From: Okeania sp.
GTDB lineage: Bacteria; Cyanobacteriota; Cyanobacteriia; Cyanobacteriales; Microcoleaceae
Assembly (NCBI RefSeq): GCF_035285525.1
Contig: NZ_JAYKGW010000159.1
Coordinates: forward strand, 1 to 6,734
Direction of reading: 5' to 3'
Length of the DNA stretch: 6,734 nucleotides
Both the position numbers and the translations under genes were made by a program. The notes beneath the pieces are model-generated. The model searched no databases, was not told where the DNA came from, and saw nothing but the letters and a program-made list of their open reading frames with translations. Below, piece after piece: positions 562-6,727 of the stretch; positions within the stretch are counted from its first letter, which is position 1; the number at the start of each line of letters is the position of its first letter.

Positions 562-577
562 AAGAAACCCGGTTTTT
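562..577. repeat. Degenerate copy of the AGAAACC-N-GGTTTCT palindrome
   Basis: In AAGAAACC-C-GGTTTTT, the core AAACC (565..569) pairs with GGTTT (571..575). It has the same central C as the intragenic copy at 1825..1839. Confidence 0.6.
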
Positions 578-611
578 AGGATAAATCGTTGTTTTCAGCA
601 ATAGATGTCTA

Positions 612-630
612 CCAGAAACCAGGTTTCTGG
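612..630. repeat. Perfect 19-bp palindrome CCAGAAACC-A-GGTTTCTGG
   Basis: 612..620 is the exact reverse complement of 622..630. The same CCAGAAACC core occurs three times inside the CDS (1802..1810, 1823..1831, 1913..1921). Confidence 0.85.
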
Positions 631-775
631 GTTCACATGGCTTTAGTCCTGAATTTTTCTCCCTCTTGTTACCCCAGAATACTAACTTGAGAAACCTGAG
701 CCATCTAAAAAAAAGAAGTAAACTAGAAATATATATGGGCAAAAATTAGATTCTAATGATAAACAAACTGAGCCA

Positions 776-3700
776 ATGGGTAAAACAAAAACAATAAAAA
801 TAGCTAATTATCAAGCCCTGGAACTGATTTACGAAAGTGAGCGTACCGAAATATATCGGGGGCAGAATGTAGAGAATGGACAATCAGTTATTATCAAGTT
901 GATGCGTGATGAATATCCTTCTTTCAACAAATTGGTTCAGTTTAGAAATCAATATGCAATCACCCAAAATTTACAAGTAGAAGGTATCATCAAAACTTAT
1001 GGCCTGGTACGCTATAAAAACCGCTACGCCCTCATTATGGAAGATATAAGAGGGGTATCGTTAGACGAATATCAGCTTAGAGTATCTATAAATCTGTCAG
1101 AATTTCTTGATATTGCCATTCAACTTTCAGAAATTCTCCACCAACTCCATAATAACTCGATTATTCATAAAGATATTAAACCAGCAAATATCCTAATTGA
1201 TCCGGAAACTAAACAAGTCAAACTCATAGATTTTAGTATTTCGACTCTGTTACCAAAAGAAACTCAAACAGTTGAAACTCCCAAAGTATTAGAAGGAACT
1301 CCAGCTTATATATCTCCAGAACAAACAGGAAGGATGAATAGAGGAATTGACTATCGGAGTGATTTCTATTGTTTAGGAGTAACATTTTATGAATTATTAA
1401 GTGGAGGTTTACCTTTTAAGAGTAATGATGCTTTGGAACTAATTTATGCTCATATTGCCTTGTCCCCAATCCCTTTGAGAAATAGGGGGATATTAGAGGG
1501 AGAAATATGTCCGCAGCCCATATCAGATATGGTAATGAAACTGATGGCGAAAAATGCTGAAGACCGCTATCAGAGTGCTTTAGGATTGAAATATGACCTA
1601 GAAAAATGTCAGAGTGATTATAGAGAAAAGGGTGAAATAGAGTCGTTTGAATTAGGGGAACGAGATATTTGCGCTCGCTTTCTGATTCCGGAGAAATTAT
1701 ACGGACGGGAAGCAGAAATTAAAGCACTACTGGATGCTTTTGAACGAGTTAGTAATCCCCCCCAACCCCCCTTTGAAAGGGGGGAGTTACCGATTCCCAA
1801 CCCAGAAACCGGCTTTCCAGACCCAGAAACCCGGTTTCTTCGAGAAAGAACGGTAGCCAAAGGCAATCCCCCCCAACCCCCCTTTCAAAGGGGGGAGTTA
1901 CCGATTCCCAACCCAGAAACCGACTTTCTCACCCGTGAAATAGTAATGGTGGAGGGATTTTCTGGCATTGGCAAAACGGTTGTAATTAATGAGGTTCACA
2001 AACCAATAGTTAGACAACGGGGTTACTTTATCAAAGGAAAATTCGATCAATTTAATCGCAACATTCCTTTTAGTGCTTTTGTGCAAGCTTTTCGGAGCTT
2101 AATGGGGCAAATTATCAGCGAATCTGATGACGAGTTATCTACTTGGAAAGCAAAAATTCTGGAAACAGTCGGTACAAACGGACAAGTTTTAATAGATGTA
2201 ATCCCCGAACTAGAAAGAGTAATTGGCAAACAACCTCCGGTTCCGGAACTCTCAGGAAGTGCAGCCCAAAATCGCTTTAATCTCTTGTTTCAAAAATTTA
2301 TAGCTATCTTTGCCACCAAAGAACATCCCTTAGTCATATTTTTAGATGATTTACAATGGGTAGATTCTGCATCATTAAATTTAATGAAAGTGTTGATGGG
2401 AGATAATGAGATAGGTTATTTACTATTACTGGGAGCATATCGAGACAACGAAGTATTTCCCGCTCATCCTCTGATGTTAACTTTAGCAGATTTACAGAAA
2501 CAAAAGGTAGCTATTTCAACTATTACCCTCGCCCCCTTAGCTCAAAAACATATTAATCAGTTAGTAGCAGAAACTCTCAGTTGCAGTGTTAAGTTAGCTA
2601 TTCCTTTAACAGAACTAATTTATGGGAAAACCAAAGGGAACCCATTCTTTACCACCCAATTCTTAAAAGGATTATATGAAGATGAATTAATAGTATTTAA
2701 TTGGCATTTGGGATATTGGGAATCTGATTTGGTGAAGGTACAAGATGCAGCATTGACGGATGATGTGGTAGAATTTATGGCTGGGAGATTGCAAAAATTA
2801 CCGTCAAAAACCCAAGAAGTATTGAAGGTAGCAGCTTGTATTGGCAACGAATTTGATTTAGAAACATTGGCGATAGTGCGAGAAATTTCTTCAGAAGAAG
2901 CGGCAGCAGAAATATGGCGAGCGCTCCAGGAAAGGATTGTTTTACCAATCAGTGAAGCTTACAAATTTTTCCAAGGGGTGGTTGACTCCATTTCCATACA
3001 ACCAGAAATGATTGGTTATCGCTTTTTGCACGATCGCGTTCAACAAGCTGCTTATCAATTAATTCCAGATGCAGAAAAACAAATAGCTCATTATCATATC
3101 GGTAAGCGTCTTCTCTCTCGTCTTTCACTGGAGGAGCGAGAGAAATATCTGTTTGATATCGTTAATCATTTGAATATGGCGCTAGTTCTCATAGTGGATT
3201 CCAAGGAACGGGAACAATTGATGCAATTAAATCTGCAAGCTGGACGTAAAGCTAAGAATGCTTTAGCTTATCGAGCAGCGAGTGAATATTATGATACAGC
3301 TTGTCTTTTACTGAAAGATAGCAGTTGGCAAAACGATTATCAAAATCATTTAGCCGTTTATTCGGGAGCAGTGGAAACTGCTTTTTTATGTGGAGATTTC
3401 CCTCGCATGGAAGAGTTAGGAGAAATTGTACTTCAAGAAGCGCAAACATTTCTAGATTGTGTGAAAGTATATGAAATTAAAGTACAAGCAGCAATTGCTC
3501 AAAATCAACTTGATGCAGCTATTCAATTAGGTTTGCATTTTCTGAGAAATCTTGATATTCAACTTCCCGAACAAGTAACAAATTCGGAAATTGAGGCAGC
3601 TTTTGCTGAAAATGATGTTTTATTAGAAAAAATTGCTATCGAAGATGTGGTTAACTTCGAGCGCATGAGCGATTCCAATAAAGAGGCAGCAATACGGATG

Positions 3701-6334
3701 ATTACTATTGCTGGGTTAGCTATGTATGTTGCTAATCCAGAATTATTAATGTTAAGTGTAGCGCGACAAGTTAACCTCTGTTTGCAATATGGAAACACTT
3801 CTACTTCTGCTGATGCTTATGCTACCTACGGTCTGTTTCTTTGTGGCGAAATGGGAGAAATAGAAAAGGGGTATCAGTTTGGGGAACTTGCTATTGCAGT
3901 TCTGGAAAATCTGCAAACTATTGAAATTAAATCCTTAGTTTATGTTTTGTTTAATGGTTTTATTAGACATTGGAAATATCCTTGTCGAGATACTCTGCCA
4001 GATTTACAAAATGCCTACCACTGGGGTTTAGAAATGGGCGATCTCCAAAATGCTGCCCTCTCTGCTTATTGCTATTGTAGCCATCAATTTTTGTGTGGTG
4101 TAAATCTGGGAGATGTTCATAAAGAAATCGAACAGTACGCTCGTGCTGTGGAATCAATACAACAACTGGGAATCAAAGGTTGGCTCGATCCCTTGTTGGC
4201 ATTAACAGGAAAACTTATTAAACCCTCATCAACACCATTACTTTTATTATCCTCGATTACAGCAGAAAAAGAAACTATCGAAACTTTTAATCAAGACAGC
4301 GATCGTACAGGAATGTTTGTCTTTGCTTTTAGTAAAATGCTGTTAGCTTATTTATGGAATCAAACCGAGGAGGCGATCGCTGCTGCGAATATGGCTAGAG
4401 AATATCTTGATGGCATCACAGGTATGGCTTTCGTTTCCTGTTTCTACTTCTATGATACTGCTATTTTATTAAGCTCCCAACCAACTTCTCTTTCTTCTGA
4501 AGAGATAGATAAAATCGTCGATAATAAAAACAAACTACAAGATTTGTCTCAGTACGGTGCATCTAACTTACTTCATAAGTTTCAATTACTAGAAGCAGAG
4601 TATTATCGTTGGAATGGCGAGCATATTCTAGCGATGGAAATGTACGATCGCGCTATTGCTGGAGCCAAAGAAAATCATTACATTCAAGAAGAAGCCTTAG
4701 CAAATGAACTAGCAGCCAAATTTTATCTAGACTGGGATAAAGAAAAATTTGCCACACTTTATATGCAAGAAGCCTACTATTGTTATTCTCAATGGGGAGC
4801 CAAAGCCAAAGTAAAAGAGATAGAAAAACGCTATCCCAAACTTTTAGAACCAATTTTGCAAACCAACCTCTCCGCTGCCACAGCTAGCATTGCTCAAATT
4901 ACCAGTAATGATCGGACGCAAACAGCAACCGTTGCCAATATTTCCTCTATCATTGACTTTTCATCTTTATTAAAAGCTTCCCAAACTCTTTCCGGAGAAA
5001 TTGAACTCGATCGCTTACTCTCAACAGTAATGAAAATTATCATCGAAAATGCTGGAGCAACCAAAGGTGCATTATTATTAGTCGGAAAACAGGGATTAAC
5101 AGTAGAAGCGATCGCTAGTCGTACTGGAGTCAACAGTCAATTAACCATAGATTCTTTAAATCAATCTATTCCCCTCGAAGAAAATATTGACTTACCCGTA
5201 GGATTAGTTAACTTTGTCAGACGCACCGCAGAAACTGCAATTTTAGATGGGAAAACAGCCCAAGAACAATTTGCTGCCGATACTTATTTACTTCATTTTC
5301 ATCCCCAAAGTTTGCTGTGTATGCCTTTATTTGAACGAGGAAAATTAATCAGTATTCTCTATTTAGAAAATAGTTTGACCGCAGATGCTTTTACTGAAAA
5401 CAGGGTAAAAATTCTAGATACTTTGTGCGCTCAAGCAGCAATTTCCTTAGAAAATGCCAGATTATACCAACAAGCGCAAAAAGCACTCAAGGACTTGCAA
5501 CAGACTCAACTACAATTAGTACAACAGGAAAAAATGGCAACCTTGGGTAATTTGGTAGCAGGAGTTGCCCATGAAATTAATAATCCGATTGGGTTTATTA
5601 GAGGGAATATTGATGTAGCTCAAGACTATTTACAAGATTTACTTACTATACTAGCATTATATGCAGAAAATACCTCTCCACCAGAGTCAATTATGGCAGA
5701 GATAGAAGAATTAGAACAGGATTTTATTGCCGAAGATTTCCCGAAACTGATAACATCACTGGCAGAAGGATGTGACCGCATTCGCAATATTAGTACATCT
5801 TTGCGCACATTTTCACGGAGAGATACAACTACCAAAACAGAGTTTAATCTACATGATGGCATAGATAGCACTTTGTTAATTTTAAAATATCGTCTCAAAG
5901 CTAATCAAAACCGTCCCAGTATTGAGATTGTCAAAAATTACAGTCAGATACCGCTAGTGAAATGTTATGCAGGGCAACTAAATCAAGTATTTATGAATTT
6001 ATTGGCTAATGGGATTGATGCTTTAGAAGAAAGTAATAAAGGTAAAACTTTTACTGAGATAGAAAATAATCCCAATCGGATTACAATCAGAACGAAATTA
6101 AGCGCAGACAGCCAAAATGCCATAGTCGAAATTTCCGACAATGGAACGGGAATTCCAGAAGAAGTAAAAGAGAAGATATTTGAGCAAGGATTTACCACAA
6201 AAGAAGTCGGCAAAGGAACAGGTTTAGGAATGGCGATCGCTCATCAAATTATTACCGAGAAACATGGAGGTAAAATTATCTGCAATTCCAGAGTTGGCGA
6301 AGGTACAACTTTTACTATTATTATTCCAAAGTAA
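776..6334 (+). CDS. Multi-domain sensor multi-kinase (HstK-like dual kinase): Ser/Thr protein kinase + P-loop AAA_16/STAND-like NTPase + helical region + GAF + histidine kinase (HisKA/HATPase_c)
   Basis: The ORF is uninterrupted for 1852 codons, from ATG 776 to TAA 6332..6334. Kinase motifs: VIIK (K41), HKDIKPANIL (aa 131-140), DFS (aa 152-154), TPAYISPE (aa 175-182). NTPase motifs: LYGRE (aa 308-312), Walker A GFSGIGKT (aa 394-401), Walker B-like LVIFLDD (aa 519-525). The GAF-like region runs from DFSSLLKASQTLSGEIELDRLL to LENARLYQQ (aa ~1393-1566). Histidine-kinase motifs: H-box AGVAHEINNP (H1599), N-box NLLANGIDA, G1 DNGTGIPEE, G2 GKGTGLGMA. The N-terminus matches the usual start of this family just before the kinase domain. 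No clear Shine-Dalgarno sequence is present. Confidence 0.95.
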   Translation: MGKTKTIKIANYQALELIYESERTEIYRGQNVENGQSVIIKLMRDEYPSFNKLVQFRNQYAITQNLQVEGIIKTYGLVRYKNRYALIMEDIRGVSLDEYQLRVSINLSEFLDIAIQLSEILHQLHNNSIIHKDIKPANILIDPETKQVKLIDFSISTLLPKETQTVETPKVLEGTPAYISPEQTGRMNRGIDYRSDFYCLGVTFYELLSGGLPFKSNDALELIYAHIALSPIPLRNRGILEGEICPQPISDMVMKLMAKNAEDRYQSALGLKYDLEKCQSDYREKGEIESFELGERDICARFLIPEKLYGREAEIKALLDAFERVSNPPQPPFERGELPIPNPETGFPDPETRFLRERTVAKGNPPQPPFQRGELPIPNPETDFLTREIVMVEGFSGIGKTVVINEVHKPIVRQRGYFIKGKFDQFNRNIPFSAFVQAFRSLMGQIISESDDELSTWKAKILETVGTNGQVLIDVIPELERVIGKQPPVPELSGSAAQNRFNLLFQKFIAIFATKEHPLVIFLDDLQWVDSASLNLMKVLMGDNEIGYLLLLGAYRDNEVFPAHPLMLTLADLQKQKVAISTITLAPLAQKHINQLVAETLSCSVKLAIPLTELIYGKTKGNPFFTTQFLKGLYEDELIVFNWHLGYWESDLVKVQDAALTDDVVEFMAGRLQKLPSKTQEVLKVAACIGNEFDLETLAIVREISSEEAAAEIWRALQERIVLPISEAYKFFQGVVDSISIQPEMIGYRFLHDRVQQAAYQLIPDAEKQIAHYHIGKRLLSRLSLEEREKYLFDIVNHLNMALVLIVDSKEREQLMQLNLQAGRKAKNALAYRAASEYYDTACLLLKDSSWQNDYQNHLAVYSGAVETAFLCGDFPRMEELGEIVLQEAQTFLDCVKVYEIKVQAAIAQNQLDAAIQLGLHFLRNLDIQLPEQVTNSEIEAAFAENDVLLEKIAIEDVVNFERMSDSNKEAAIRMITIAGLAMYVANPELLMLSVARQVNLCLQYGNTSTSADAYATYGLFLCGEMGEIEKGYQFGELAIAVLENLQTIEIKSLVYVLFNGFIRHWKYPCRDTLPDLQNAYHWGLEMGDLQNAALSAYCYCSHQFLCGVNLGDVHKEIEQYARAVESIQQLGIKGWLDPLLALTGKLIKPSSTPLLLLSSITAEKETIETFNQDSDRTGMFVFAFSKMLLAYLWNQTEEAIAAANMAREYLDGITGMAFVSCFYFYDTAILLSSQPTSLSSEEIDKIVDNKNKLQDLSQYGASNLLHKFQLLEAEYYRWNGEHILAMEMYDRAIAGAKENHYIQEEALANELAAKFYLDWDKEKFATLYMQEAYYCYSQWGAKAKVKEIEKRYPKLLEPILQTNLSAATASIAQITSNDRTQTATVANISSIIDFSSLLKASQTLSGEIELDRLLSTVMKIIIENAGATKGALLLVGKQGLTVEAIASRTGVNSQLTIDSLNQSIPLEENIDLPVGLVNFVRRTAETAILDGKTAQEQFAADTYLLHFHPQSLLCMPLFERGKLISILYLENSLTADAFTENRVKILDTLCAQAAISLENARLYQQAQKALKDLQQTQLQLVQQEKMATLGNLVAGVAHEINNPIGFIRGNIDVAQDYLQDLLTILALYAENTSPPESIMAEIEELEQDFIAEDFPKLITSLAEGCDRIRNISTSLRTFSRRDTTTKTEFNLHDGIDSTLLILKYRLKANQNRPSIEIVKNYSQIPLVKCYAGQLNQVFMNLLANGIDALEESNKGKTFTEIENNPNRITIRTKLSADSQNAIVEISDNGTGIPEEVKEKIFEQGFTTKEVGKGTGLGMAIAHQIITEKHGGKIICNSRVGEGTTFTIIIPK
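806..1600 (+). other. Hanks-type Ser/Thr protein kinase domain (aa ~11-275)
   Basis: The catalytic loop is HKDIKPANIL. The Mg-binding motif is DFS rather than DFG. The activation-segment end is SPE rather than APE. The beta3 lysine lies in VIIK. The Gly-rich loop is degenerate (YESERTEIYRG). Confidence 0.85.
1754..1817 (+). repeat. 64-nt direct repeat, copy A, in frame inside the CDS (aa 327-347, NPPQPPFERGELPIPNPETGF)
   Basis: AATCCCCCCCAACCCCCCTTTGAAAGGGGGGAGTTACCGATTCCCAACCCAGAAACCGGCTTTC. It contains the 19-nt palindrome CCCCCCTTT-G-AAAGGGGGG (1766..1784). It is 62/64 identical to copy B. Confidence 0.9.
1865..1928 (+). repeat. 64-nt direct repeat, copy B, in frame inside the CDS (aa 364-384, NPPQPPFQRGELPIPNPETDF)
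   Basis: It is offset from copy A by exactly 111 nt (37 codons). The only mismatches are 1886 C (vs 1775 G) and 1923 A (vs 1812 G). Its palindrome CCCCCCTTT-C-AAAGGGGGG lies at 1877..1895. Confidence 0.9.
4373..4380. repeat. HIP1 octamer GCGATCGC
   Basis: Exact match to the highly iterated palindrome typical of cyanobacterial genomes. Confidence 0.8.
4952..5461 (+). other. GAF domain (aa ~1393-1562)
   Basis: The pattern is typical of GAF: L..SQ.LS.E..LD.LL..V...I.E..GA..G.L.L, running to P.SLLC.PL...GKLI.ILYLEN and ending before a coiled-coil linker into the H-box. Confidence 0.7.
5108..5115. repeat. HIP1 octamer GCGATCGC
   Basis: Exact match. Confidence 0.8.
5530..6331 (+). other. Histidine kinase core: HisKA dimerisation/phosphoacceptor plus HATPase_c
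   Basis: The H-box is EKMATLGNLVAGVAHEINNPIGFIRGN, with the phosphoacceptor His codon at 5570..5572. The N-box starts near 5996, the G1 Asp codon is at 6137..6139, and G2 (GKGTGLG) starts at 6209. Confidence 0.85.
6233..6240. repeat. HIP1 octamer GCGATCGC
   Basis: Exact match. Confidence 0.8.
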
Positions 6335-6383
6335 GGAAGAAGGAAGAAGGAAGAAGGAAGAAGGAAGAAGGAAGAAGGAAAAA
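6335..6383. repeat. Heptanucleotide tandem array (GGAAGAA)x6 plus GGAAAAA, starting at the first base after the stop codon
   Basis: There are six perfect GGAAGAA units (6335..6376) and one variant (6377..6383). The plus strand is purine-only from 6333 to 6386 (54 nt). Confidence 0.9.
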
Positions 6384-6536
6384 GGGTTATATCAAATCCG
6401 GTAGTATCGGTAGAATTCACTTTCTGTAGGGGTTTAGTCTCCAAACCCTTGCAAATTAGCAGTTTTCCCTCTTTTCTGATAGTATAACCTTATTCTCCAA
6501 CTTTTCGGGAACCGTAGCCGACGGATTTAATATTAC

Positions 6537-6559: not shown

Positions 6560-6601
6560 AAAAAACAAAGGTTCTCTCGTATCGTTAAGAGAACCTTTGT
6601 T
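6560..6601 (-). terminator. Intrinsic terminator downstream of 5S copy 2, probably bidirectional and shared with the convergent kinase gene
   Basis: A perfect 12-bp stem, CAAAGGTTCTCT (6566..6577) with AGAGAACCTTTG (6588..6599), encloses a 10-nt loop. On the minus strand the stem is followed by TTTTTT (complement of A6 at 6560..6565). On the plus strand it is followed by TTTATATTT. It starts about 10 nt after the 5S 3' end. Confidence 0.8.
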
Positions 6602-6610
6602 TATATTTAA

Positions 6611-6727
6611 CCTGGCATCGTGCTATTTTACCGGGCAGCTACCCACCGAGTATCTTCGCCACTGTAGCGTTTCACTTCCGAGTTCGGGATGGATCGGAGT
6701 GGTTCCACTACGTCATAGACACCAGGA
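6611..6727 (-). rRNA. rrf: 5S ribosomal RNA, copy 2 (complete, about 117 nt; ends uncertain by 1-2 nt)
   Basis: The sequence is identical to copy 1 and additionally shows the 3' CCAGG that pairs with the 5' CCTGG in helix I. A strong terminator follows it. Confidence 0.92.

Follow-up and report, generated by a model that had tools for sequence, protein, structure and literature searches.

In-frame palindromic repeats before the Walker A loop of a cyanobacterial kinase-ATPase gene

How can repeated, palindromic DNA come to lie in frame just ahead of a nucleotide-binding loop in a gene that stays open? We consider this question for a contig of Okeania sp. (NZ_JAYKGW010000159.1, NCBI RefSeq assembly GCF_035285525.1), analysed over its entire length of 6734 nt (hereafter the window). 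Its single long gene, found in the list of open reading frames (ORFs), encodes a protein in which Pfam recognizes Ser/Thr kinase, AAA_16 ATPase, GAF, HisKA and HATPase_c domains, and the block of repeats lies between the LYGRE motif and the Walker A loop of the AAA_16 domain (Table 1). A preliminary description, made from the sequence alone, had proposed that a small dispersed or mobile repeat inserted there, duplicated and was tolerated or exapted as a Pro-rich linker. We arrive at a related reading, to which we give a probability of about 0.75: palindromic repeats inserted at a turn that is permissive and may be preferred, copying then took place locally, selection eliminated variants that broke the frame, and the remainder is translated as a tolerated, disordered Pro-rich loop.

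The repeat block and its empty site in relatives

The core of the block is a 64-nt direct repeat whose two copies agree at 62 positions (97%), lie 111 nt or 37 codons apart, and are translated in frame as NPPQPPFERGELPIPNPETGF and NPPQPPFQRGELPIPNPETDF, just as the preliminary description had it. By our own estimate, a 62/64 match would arise anywhere in 6.7 kb by chance with a probability of the order of 1e-27. The copies differ at 1775/1886 (G/C) and at 1812/1923 (G/A). Adding two bases leftward extends the repeat to 66 nt (22 codons, 63/66 identical), and a gapped alignment stretches the similarity weakly further leftward, into GAACG..GT..AG. A plain 111-nt tandem duplication was also considered and was rejected because the repeated part makes up just 64 (or 66) of those 111 nt.

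Each copy is a composite of two repeat families rather than a single element. The first, H1, is a 32-nt C/G hairpin of the form A(T/A)-C7-AA-C6-TT..AA-G6-AG with a stem of 8-9 bp; the second, P, is a palindrome of 15-23 nt, AGAAACC-N-GGTTTCT or ACCCAGAAACC-N-GGTTTCT. A degenerate P closes each copy, and an intact one, with the 15-nt palindrome noticed earlier, stands between them. The 19-nt palindromes of the two H1 hairpins, likewise recognized in the preliminary description, are 100% complementary to each other: their sole difference is the centre base (G at 1775, C at 1886), so that the second core is the exact reverse complement of the first. The sequence CCAGAAACC occurs five times in the window against 0.05 expected; three occurrences are read in frame as P-E-T (1802, 1823 and 1913) and two recur in the non-coding leader, at 612 (+) and 622 (-). 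The contrast in composition holds as well, with a GC content of 0.52-0.60 over the block against about 0.33-0.45 nearby and about 0.38 for the gene. Throughout, the ORF of 1852 codons is uninterrupted, and its catalytic motifs are intact in the translation and in the Pfam matches.

Relatives of the protein, named 'trifunctional serine/threonine-protein kinase/ATP-binding protein/sensor histidine kinase', come from filamentous cyanobacteria such as Roseofilum, Dapis, Okeania and Microcoleus, the best match having 69% identity and the next 66-67% (Roseofilum). We aligned the 120 best homologues and measured the linker from LYGR to G[FY]SG[IV]GK[TS]. The minimal spacing of 25 residues is found in 82/120, compared with 82 residues in the window, which has the longest linker among the 120 homologues and itself; the net excess is 57 codons. 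This bears out the earlier remark that LYGRE (aa 308-312) and the Walker A loop stand too far apart for a spacing that is usually about 25-30 residues, as well as its expectation of a gap in orthologues. In the minimal form the linker reads ...LLDAFERVAEG[KN]SEMMLVA, that is ERVAEG[KN]SEMMLVAGFSGIGKT, from an empty-site DNA of GCT GAA GGA AAA AGT GAA ATG. Furthermore, P0002-P0005, the four proteins closest to the window by neighbour joining, lack the insert altogether. Judged from these alignments, the block is an insertion, and one that, on the same footing, parts the N-terminal helix of AAA_16 from the beta-1 strand and Walker A loop: since the domain is interrupted by the insert, the Pfam match does not begin before aa 388, profile position 25. 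For annotation, this means that 57 extra residues split the AAA_16 match and that it would be wrong to annotate the Pro-rich segment as a domain.

The inserted peptide resembles nothing in the collections searched. Its 61-aa translation has no match among 5.8 billion proteins. No NCBIfam model for repeat-derived peptides matches the block, including the RPE1-domain model that NCBIfam presumably holds, and Rfam gives no family in the window beyond two terminal 5S genes, with nothing at E<=1 in 500-2050. An AlphaFold model of aa 276-625, built with 54 homologues (mean pLDDT 67, with the Walker A strand also badly placed), predicts a helix at aa 312-326 followed by coil across the insert at pLDDT 28-56; the structure prediction called for by the preliminary description thus backs nothing beyond a low-confidence, unstructured loop. 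Searches with aa 276-625 returned no sequence match in the PDB and no significant Foldseek match of the model there, the best being weak matches to clamp-loader AAA+ proteins (E 0.08). If the block is translated, the expected tryptic peptides are GELPIPNPETGFPDPETR, GNPPQPPFQR and GELPIPNPETDFLTR.

Could the insert have been selected for a function, as a linker coupling kinase and ATPase, as an mRNA structure or poly-proline pause, or as a phase-variation switch in its C7, C6 and G6 runs? The reading frame has been kept through several nested events, and the same junction is used recurrently in paralogues (see below). Moreover, the single-strand fold predicted for the block region is very stable (RNA minimum free energy (MFE) -72.5 kcal/mol, z -5.9), H1a pairing with H1b over 19/19 bp in both RNA and DNA folds and enclosing an inner hairpin (1804-1817 / 1826-1839), and the block holds four PP dipeptides and homopolymer runs of 6-7 nt. 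We nevertheless find a selected function improbable. Over the homologues the inserts add between 1 and 57 aa, their sequences vary and the peptide is not conserved, while the two differences between the window copies both alter an amino acid (E/Q and G/D), so there is no sign of selection on the peptide. Runs of 6-7 nt would be short for classical contingency loci, and the presence of H1 between genes and in numerous unrelated proteins speaks against a protein-specific role.

A recurrent insert site in the kinase family

The preliminary description had not seen that the junction is a family-wide hairpin hot spot. Inserts of at least 4 aa stand at the same junction in 35/120 homologues and are of a PP..GG hairpin type in 17 of these 35, and no other junction of the ~1800-aa protein gathers such inserts among the 120. 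At the DNA level, an H1-type hairpin directly follows the Val-Ala/Ser codons in six members, the window included (Table 1), and the junction-hairpin loci examined hold no other hairpins with C and G runs of at least 5. We speak of a hot spot because many paralogues have an H1-type hairpin at this one codon junction. The empty site is a purine tract, GAAGGAAAAAG, similar to the purine-rich right flank of H1 copies elsewhere. A target preference of the hairpin, gene conversion among tandem paralogues, and an old insert with many losses are all possible causes.

H1-type hairpins after ERV-A are seen at L003:6827, L121:3976, L122:3976, L136 and L137, in differing frames, loops and genera, next to sister paralogues that are insert-free. 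Members of the kinase family form runs of two to three consecutive tandem paralogues in L003 (Dapis, 20.6 kb) and L136.

An old insert with many losses would make the block an old, family-specific and variable Pro/Gly-rich hairpin linker, passed on vertically or by gene conversion among tandem paralogues, mostly lost, and expanded by slippage in the window. In its favour, the 35 inserts share one exact junction, with six cases confirmed in DNA; P0007 and P0015 even share an identical 21-nt right side, AGTAAGGGGGGAGGTAGAGCA, and the tandem arrangement of paralogues favours conversion between them. We still consider it unlikely, for insert-bearing proteins are scattered over the tree beside insert-free sisters, the clade of the window is itself insert-free, and each loss would need to have left the conserved EG[KN]S precisely as before. 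Besides, the hairpins of the window are perfect and its copies 97% identical, whereas the paralogues share merely 50-69%; the window loop TTTGAAA and right flank are unlike those of the other family inserts (TT[AG]GTAA); and H1 occurs at no fewer than 117 stretches, in unrelated loci and genes.

The recurrence of the junction also bears on whether the block is an artefact, such as a chimeric or falsely duplicated stretch of a metagenomic contig. The whole contig has identical 121-nt ends, from which it could be argued that a repeat in the assembly graph served to close it. The 64-nt repeats, however, are shorter than this terminal overlap and the frame is kept exactly, and the same kind of hairpin occupies the same codon junction in independently assembled homologues, which makes an artefact very improbable.

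Table 1. Coordinates of the block, the host gene and related repeats in the window, with the hairpin DNA at the same junction in six family members
Feature	Position	Strand	Basis or remark
Inserted block, net +57 codons vs family minimal linker	1754..1934 (aa 327 to ~386)	+	gap in 82/120 homologues; GC; predicted coil
Copy 1 of 64-nt composite (H1 hairpin, linker, degenerate P palindrome)	1754..1817	+	direct-repeat search, alignment
Copy 2 of 64-nt composite	1865..1928	+	direct-repeat search
H1a, AT-C7-AA-C6-TTTGAAA-G6-AG; perfect 19-nt palindrome 1766-1784	1755..1786	+	inverted-repeat search; fits H1 family pattern
H1b, AT-C7-AA-C6-TTTCAAA-G6-AG; palindrome 1877-1895, centre C	1866..1897	+	inverted-repeat search
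Linker TTACCGATTC, complementary to GAACGGTAG at 1848-1856	1787..1796	+	paired in RNA and DNA MFE folds
GAACGGTAG, right arm pairing with 1787-1796; codes part of ERTVAKG	1848..1856	+	RNA and DNA folds
21-nt (7-codon) in-frame tandem, 2.1 copies (IPNPETG / FPDPETR), spanning P1 and P2	1794..1838	+	Tandem Repeats Finder (TRF), repeat search
P1, degenerate palindrome copy	1799-1817
P2, intact palindrome copy (1821-1839); perfect AGAAACC-C-GGTTTCT core	1825..1839	+
P3, degenerate palindrome copy	1910-1928
Leader P copies, 51 nt apart: 563-577 (one mismatch); 612-634, extended CCAGAAACC-A-GGTTTCTGG	563..634
Host gene, Ser/Thr kinase - AAA_16 ATPase - GAF - HisKA/HATPase_c, 1852 aa	776..6334	+	ORF list, translation, Pfam
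Ser/Thr kinase domain	aa 24-266		Pfam
LYGRE...LLDAFERVS helix, native (aa 308-326); normal end 4 residues before beta-1 strand	1697..1753	+	column-for-column homologue alignment; AlphaFold helix aa 312-326
Walker A loop GFSGIGKT (aa 394-401)	1955..1978	+	translation; matches GxxGxGK[ST]
AAA_16 ATPase domain (PF13191, E=1.4e-37)	aa 388-551		Pfam
GAF domain	aa 1410-1558		Pfam
HisKA and HATPase_c domains			Pfam
Junction DNA, window			AGT-AATC7AAC6TTTGAAAG6AG
Junction DNA, P0016			GCA-TC7AAC6TTGGTAAG6AAGA
Junction DNA, P0015			CATC7AAAC6TTAGTAAG6AGG
Junction DNA, P0007			AATC8AACTC4TGAGTAAG6AGG
Junction DNA, P0028			C6..C6TTACTAAG6..G6
Junction DNA, P0077			four C-arm and four G-arm units

Dispersal of the hairpin and the palindrome

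Both components of the block are dispersed repeats. Scanning one genome per species with the exact pattern CCCCCCCAACYCCCCN{5,9}GGGGGGAG recovered H1 from at least 117 genome stretches, with some metagenome-assembled genomes (MAGs) contributing several, where we estimate fewer than one chance match at cyanobacterial GC and a few tens at most were all genomes 70% GC. Among the matches listed, 45 of 80 titles are cyanobacterial and the others belong to Planctomycetota, Chloroflexota, Delta-, Beta- and Gammaproteobacteria, Nitrospirota/Nitrospinota and Patescibacteria; IMG/VR adds 13 matching contigs. Features that the pattern does not impose are conserved too, namely A(T/A) before the C run and a loop of TT..AA in 97/119 copies. 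The outer flanks are random save for a moderately purine-rich right side, the flank consensus reading A(T/A) to the left and AG(A/T)AAGAG to the right.

Many of these copies lie in genes. Stop-free stretches of at least 300 aa enclose 58/123 of them, with all six frames in use and the reading of the window, PPQPP..RGE, the commonest; the remainder include intergenic copies. Hosts confirmed by Pfam are the adenylation domain of LigA (L020), LeuRS (L068/L076), a UvrC-type GIY-YIG domain (L049), a RadA-like ATPase (L017), GuaA (L102) and domain V of MutS (L107), in which the insert stands directly ahead of the Walker A strand. Local in-frame amplification of H1 segments is likewise common outside the window (L008, L056, L023, L120, L054, L105, L042).

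As a separate observation, the amplified units measure 45-48 nt and stand in tandem in long cyanobacterial ORFs (L008:4764-4930, L056:346-420, L120, L054, L105, L042), for example DPPQPPLAKGGSKSEA three times over. No description of the H1 motif was found in the searchable literature, which was limited in extent.

For P, AGAAACCNGGTTTCT with one mismatch allowed has three occurrences in the window where 0.01 would be expected, two of them lying in the non-coding leader, and P2 is 95% complementary to the leader copy at 614-632. Elsewhere, 10 copies occur in 7/122 unrelated loci examined, the seven being cyanobacterial, often as pairs about 50 nt apart. Paired copies 20-53 nt apart (about 50 nt in 3/4 cases) are found in non-coding DNA of several cyanobacterial genera: the window leader, L022:1252-1319, L042:5600-5665 and L091:519-553. 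Such pairs may constitute a small paired-palindrome element. The claim of a dispersed repeat in the preliminary description is therefore supported for H1 and P; the 64-nt unit is composite and was not found elsewhere as a whole: three junction patterns (H1-linker and linker-P) gave 0 matches in genome and JGI metagenome collections, from which the host genome is apparently absent (best protein 69%), so that this null is uninformative about the host.

Taken together, these data suggest that a hairpin element would first have inserted at a junction prone to such events in the kinase family, in the DNA for the short turn from the LYGRE helix to the beta-1 strand and Walker A of the AAA_16 (STAND-type) module. 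Local copying by repeat- or hairpin-mediated slippage or template switching may have followed, after which selection would have kept reading-frame-preserving variants alone. The product would be a 57-residue Pro/Gly/Glu-rich loop, probably disordered, and the block may persist because a surface turn tolerates the extra length, rather than by any demonstrated function.

Several points weigh against this sequence of events. The 64-nt unit, which ends in AATCCCC... and ...GGCTTTC, has no terminal inverted repeats, only internal palindromes, and no target-site duplication, the flanks GTTAGT/CAGACC and AAAGGC/TCACCC sharing no direct repeat. With no linked transposase either (H1 neighbourhoods were not annotated), H1 and P are no more than putatively mobile. 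Since the composite was found nowhere else, a single composite that was duplicated locally accounts for the layout better than a 64-nt element that transposed twice. The H1 family is delimited by our own search pattern and thus carries an ascertainment bias, and its copies across phyla could partly reflect convergence. The non-synonymous nature of both copy differences counts on the same side, and the recurrence at the junction could mean an old, inherited or gene-converted feature, not a fresh insertion.

Relation to known repeats and neighbouring features

In-frame palindromic repeats inside genes are already documented, and the block is this known kind of event. Rickettsia palindromic elements (RPEs) lie in frame in functional genes, measure ~100-150 bp and are reported as restricted to Rickettsia (Ogata et al. 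2000; PMC10969869, PMC3184786). The block resembles them in being in frame and free of stops in the frame used, in adding, if translated, a surface segment, and in recurring in non-coding DNA. It differs in its build, a 32-nt C/G hairpin with a 15-23-nt palindrome, nested and locally duplicated, and in its cyanobacterial host, while RPEs have families of their own. Closer in form are intragenic repetitive extragenic palindromes (REPs), GC-rich stem-loops of 20-40 bp that occur as singles, dimers or clusters and add 20-80 aa (Di Nocera et al. 2013, PMC3733652). They are known from Cyanobacteria, Planctomycetes, Chloroflexi and Proteobacteria, and genes for replication, repair and tRNA synthetases hold many of them (PMC3733652). 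H1 is similarly a short, dispersed, GC-rich stem-loop found in LigA, MutS, UvrC, RadA and LeuRS, but it has an A(T/A)-C7-AA head instead of a GTAG or CGTC tag; neither tag is present on either strand of the window copies, which read AATC7...G6AGTTAC.

The preliminary description had likened the unit to miniature inverted-repeat transposable elements, or MITEs, and to the small dispersed repeats (SDRs) of cyanobacteria. Cyanobacterial MITEs such as Nezha, and those of Microcystis and Anabaena, also form stable hairpins, some of them fused to or inserted in ORFs; they are, however, 70-400 bp long with terminal inverted repeats and target-site duplications. Because the block has neither of these, nor a GTAG/CGTC tag, it is MITE-like only loosely. 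SDR1-8, which Elhai et al. in 2008 reportedly set out as hairpin-forming dispersed elements of 21-27 nt in filamentous cyanobacteria, are said to nest and to associate with tandem heptamers. The block shares with them very small, nested hairpin elements, and the window also has heptamer arrays. SDRs are reported as confined to Nostocaceae (PMC5861425), whereas the relatives of the window are Oscillatoriales-type (Roseofilum, Okeania, Dapis).

Taken alone, the block adds to the cases in which palindromic DNA, whether selfish or mutational, survives in an essential-looking gene through a tolerant surface loop. Two points reach beyond the single case: H1 extends far past cyanobacteria, often into repair and translation genes, and one junction has been hit repeatedly. 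It is tempting, if doubtful, to see in H1 an undescribed, coding-tolerant, multi-phylum family of tiny hairpins (in Cyanobacteria, Planctomycetota, Chloroflexota, several proteobacterial classes, Nitrospirota, Patescibacteria and some viral contigs) that lands, or is spread by conversion, preferentially at particular sites such as the helix/beta-1 turn before Walker A, and repeatedly in repair and translation genes. If true, the pattern would imply an unknown mechanism of site-selective insertion or templated repair, not transposition at random with selection acting afterwards. If target choice or repair-templated synthesis lies behind the recurrent junction, it would offer a tractable handle on how the smallest bacterial repeats spread and show where length variation beside nucleotide-binding sites originates.

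The window holds further repeats. HIP1 octamers occur three times against 0.02 expected, as fits a cyanobacterial source. The identical contig ends (1-121 and 6614-6734) carry minus-strand 5S rRNA genes, truncated at 1-113 and complete at 6610-6726; this has two readings, a kinase gene flanked by a 5S copy on each side, or a contig that assembly closed on a graph repeat. Just 3' of the latter 5S gene, 6563-6602 holds inverted repeats of 15 bp that match perfectly around a 10-nt loop; a T run comes next on that strand, and the whole looks like the rRNA operon terminator. Tandem heptamer arrays occupy 263-314 in the leader (CAATAGA/GGCAATAGACAATA) and 6333-6385 (AAGGAAG, 7.6 copies, starting from the stop codon), and resemble the short tandemly repeated repetitive (STRR-like) sequences of filamentous cyanobacteria.

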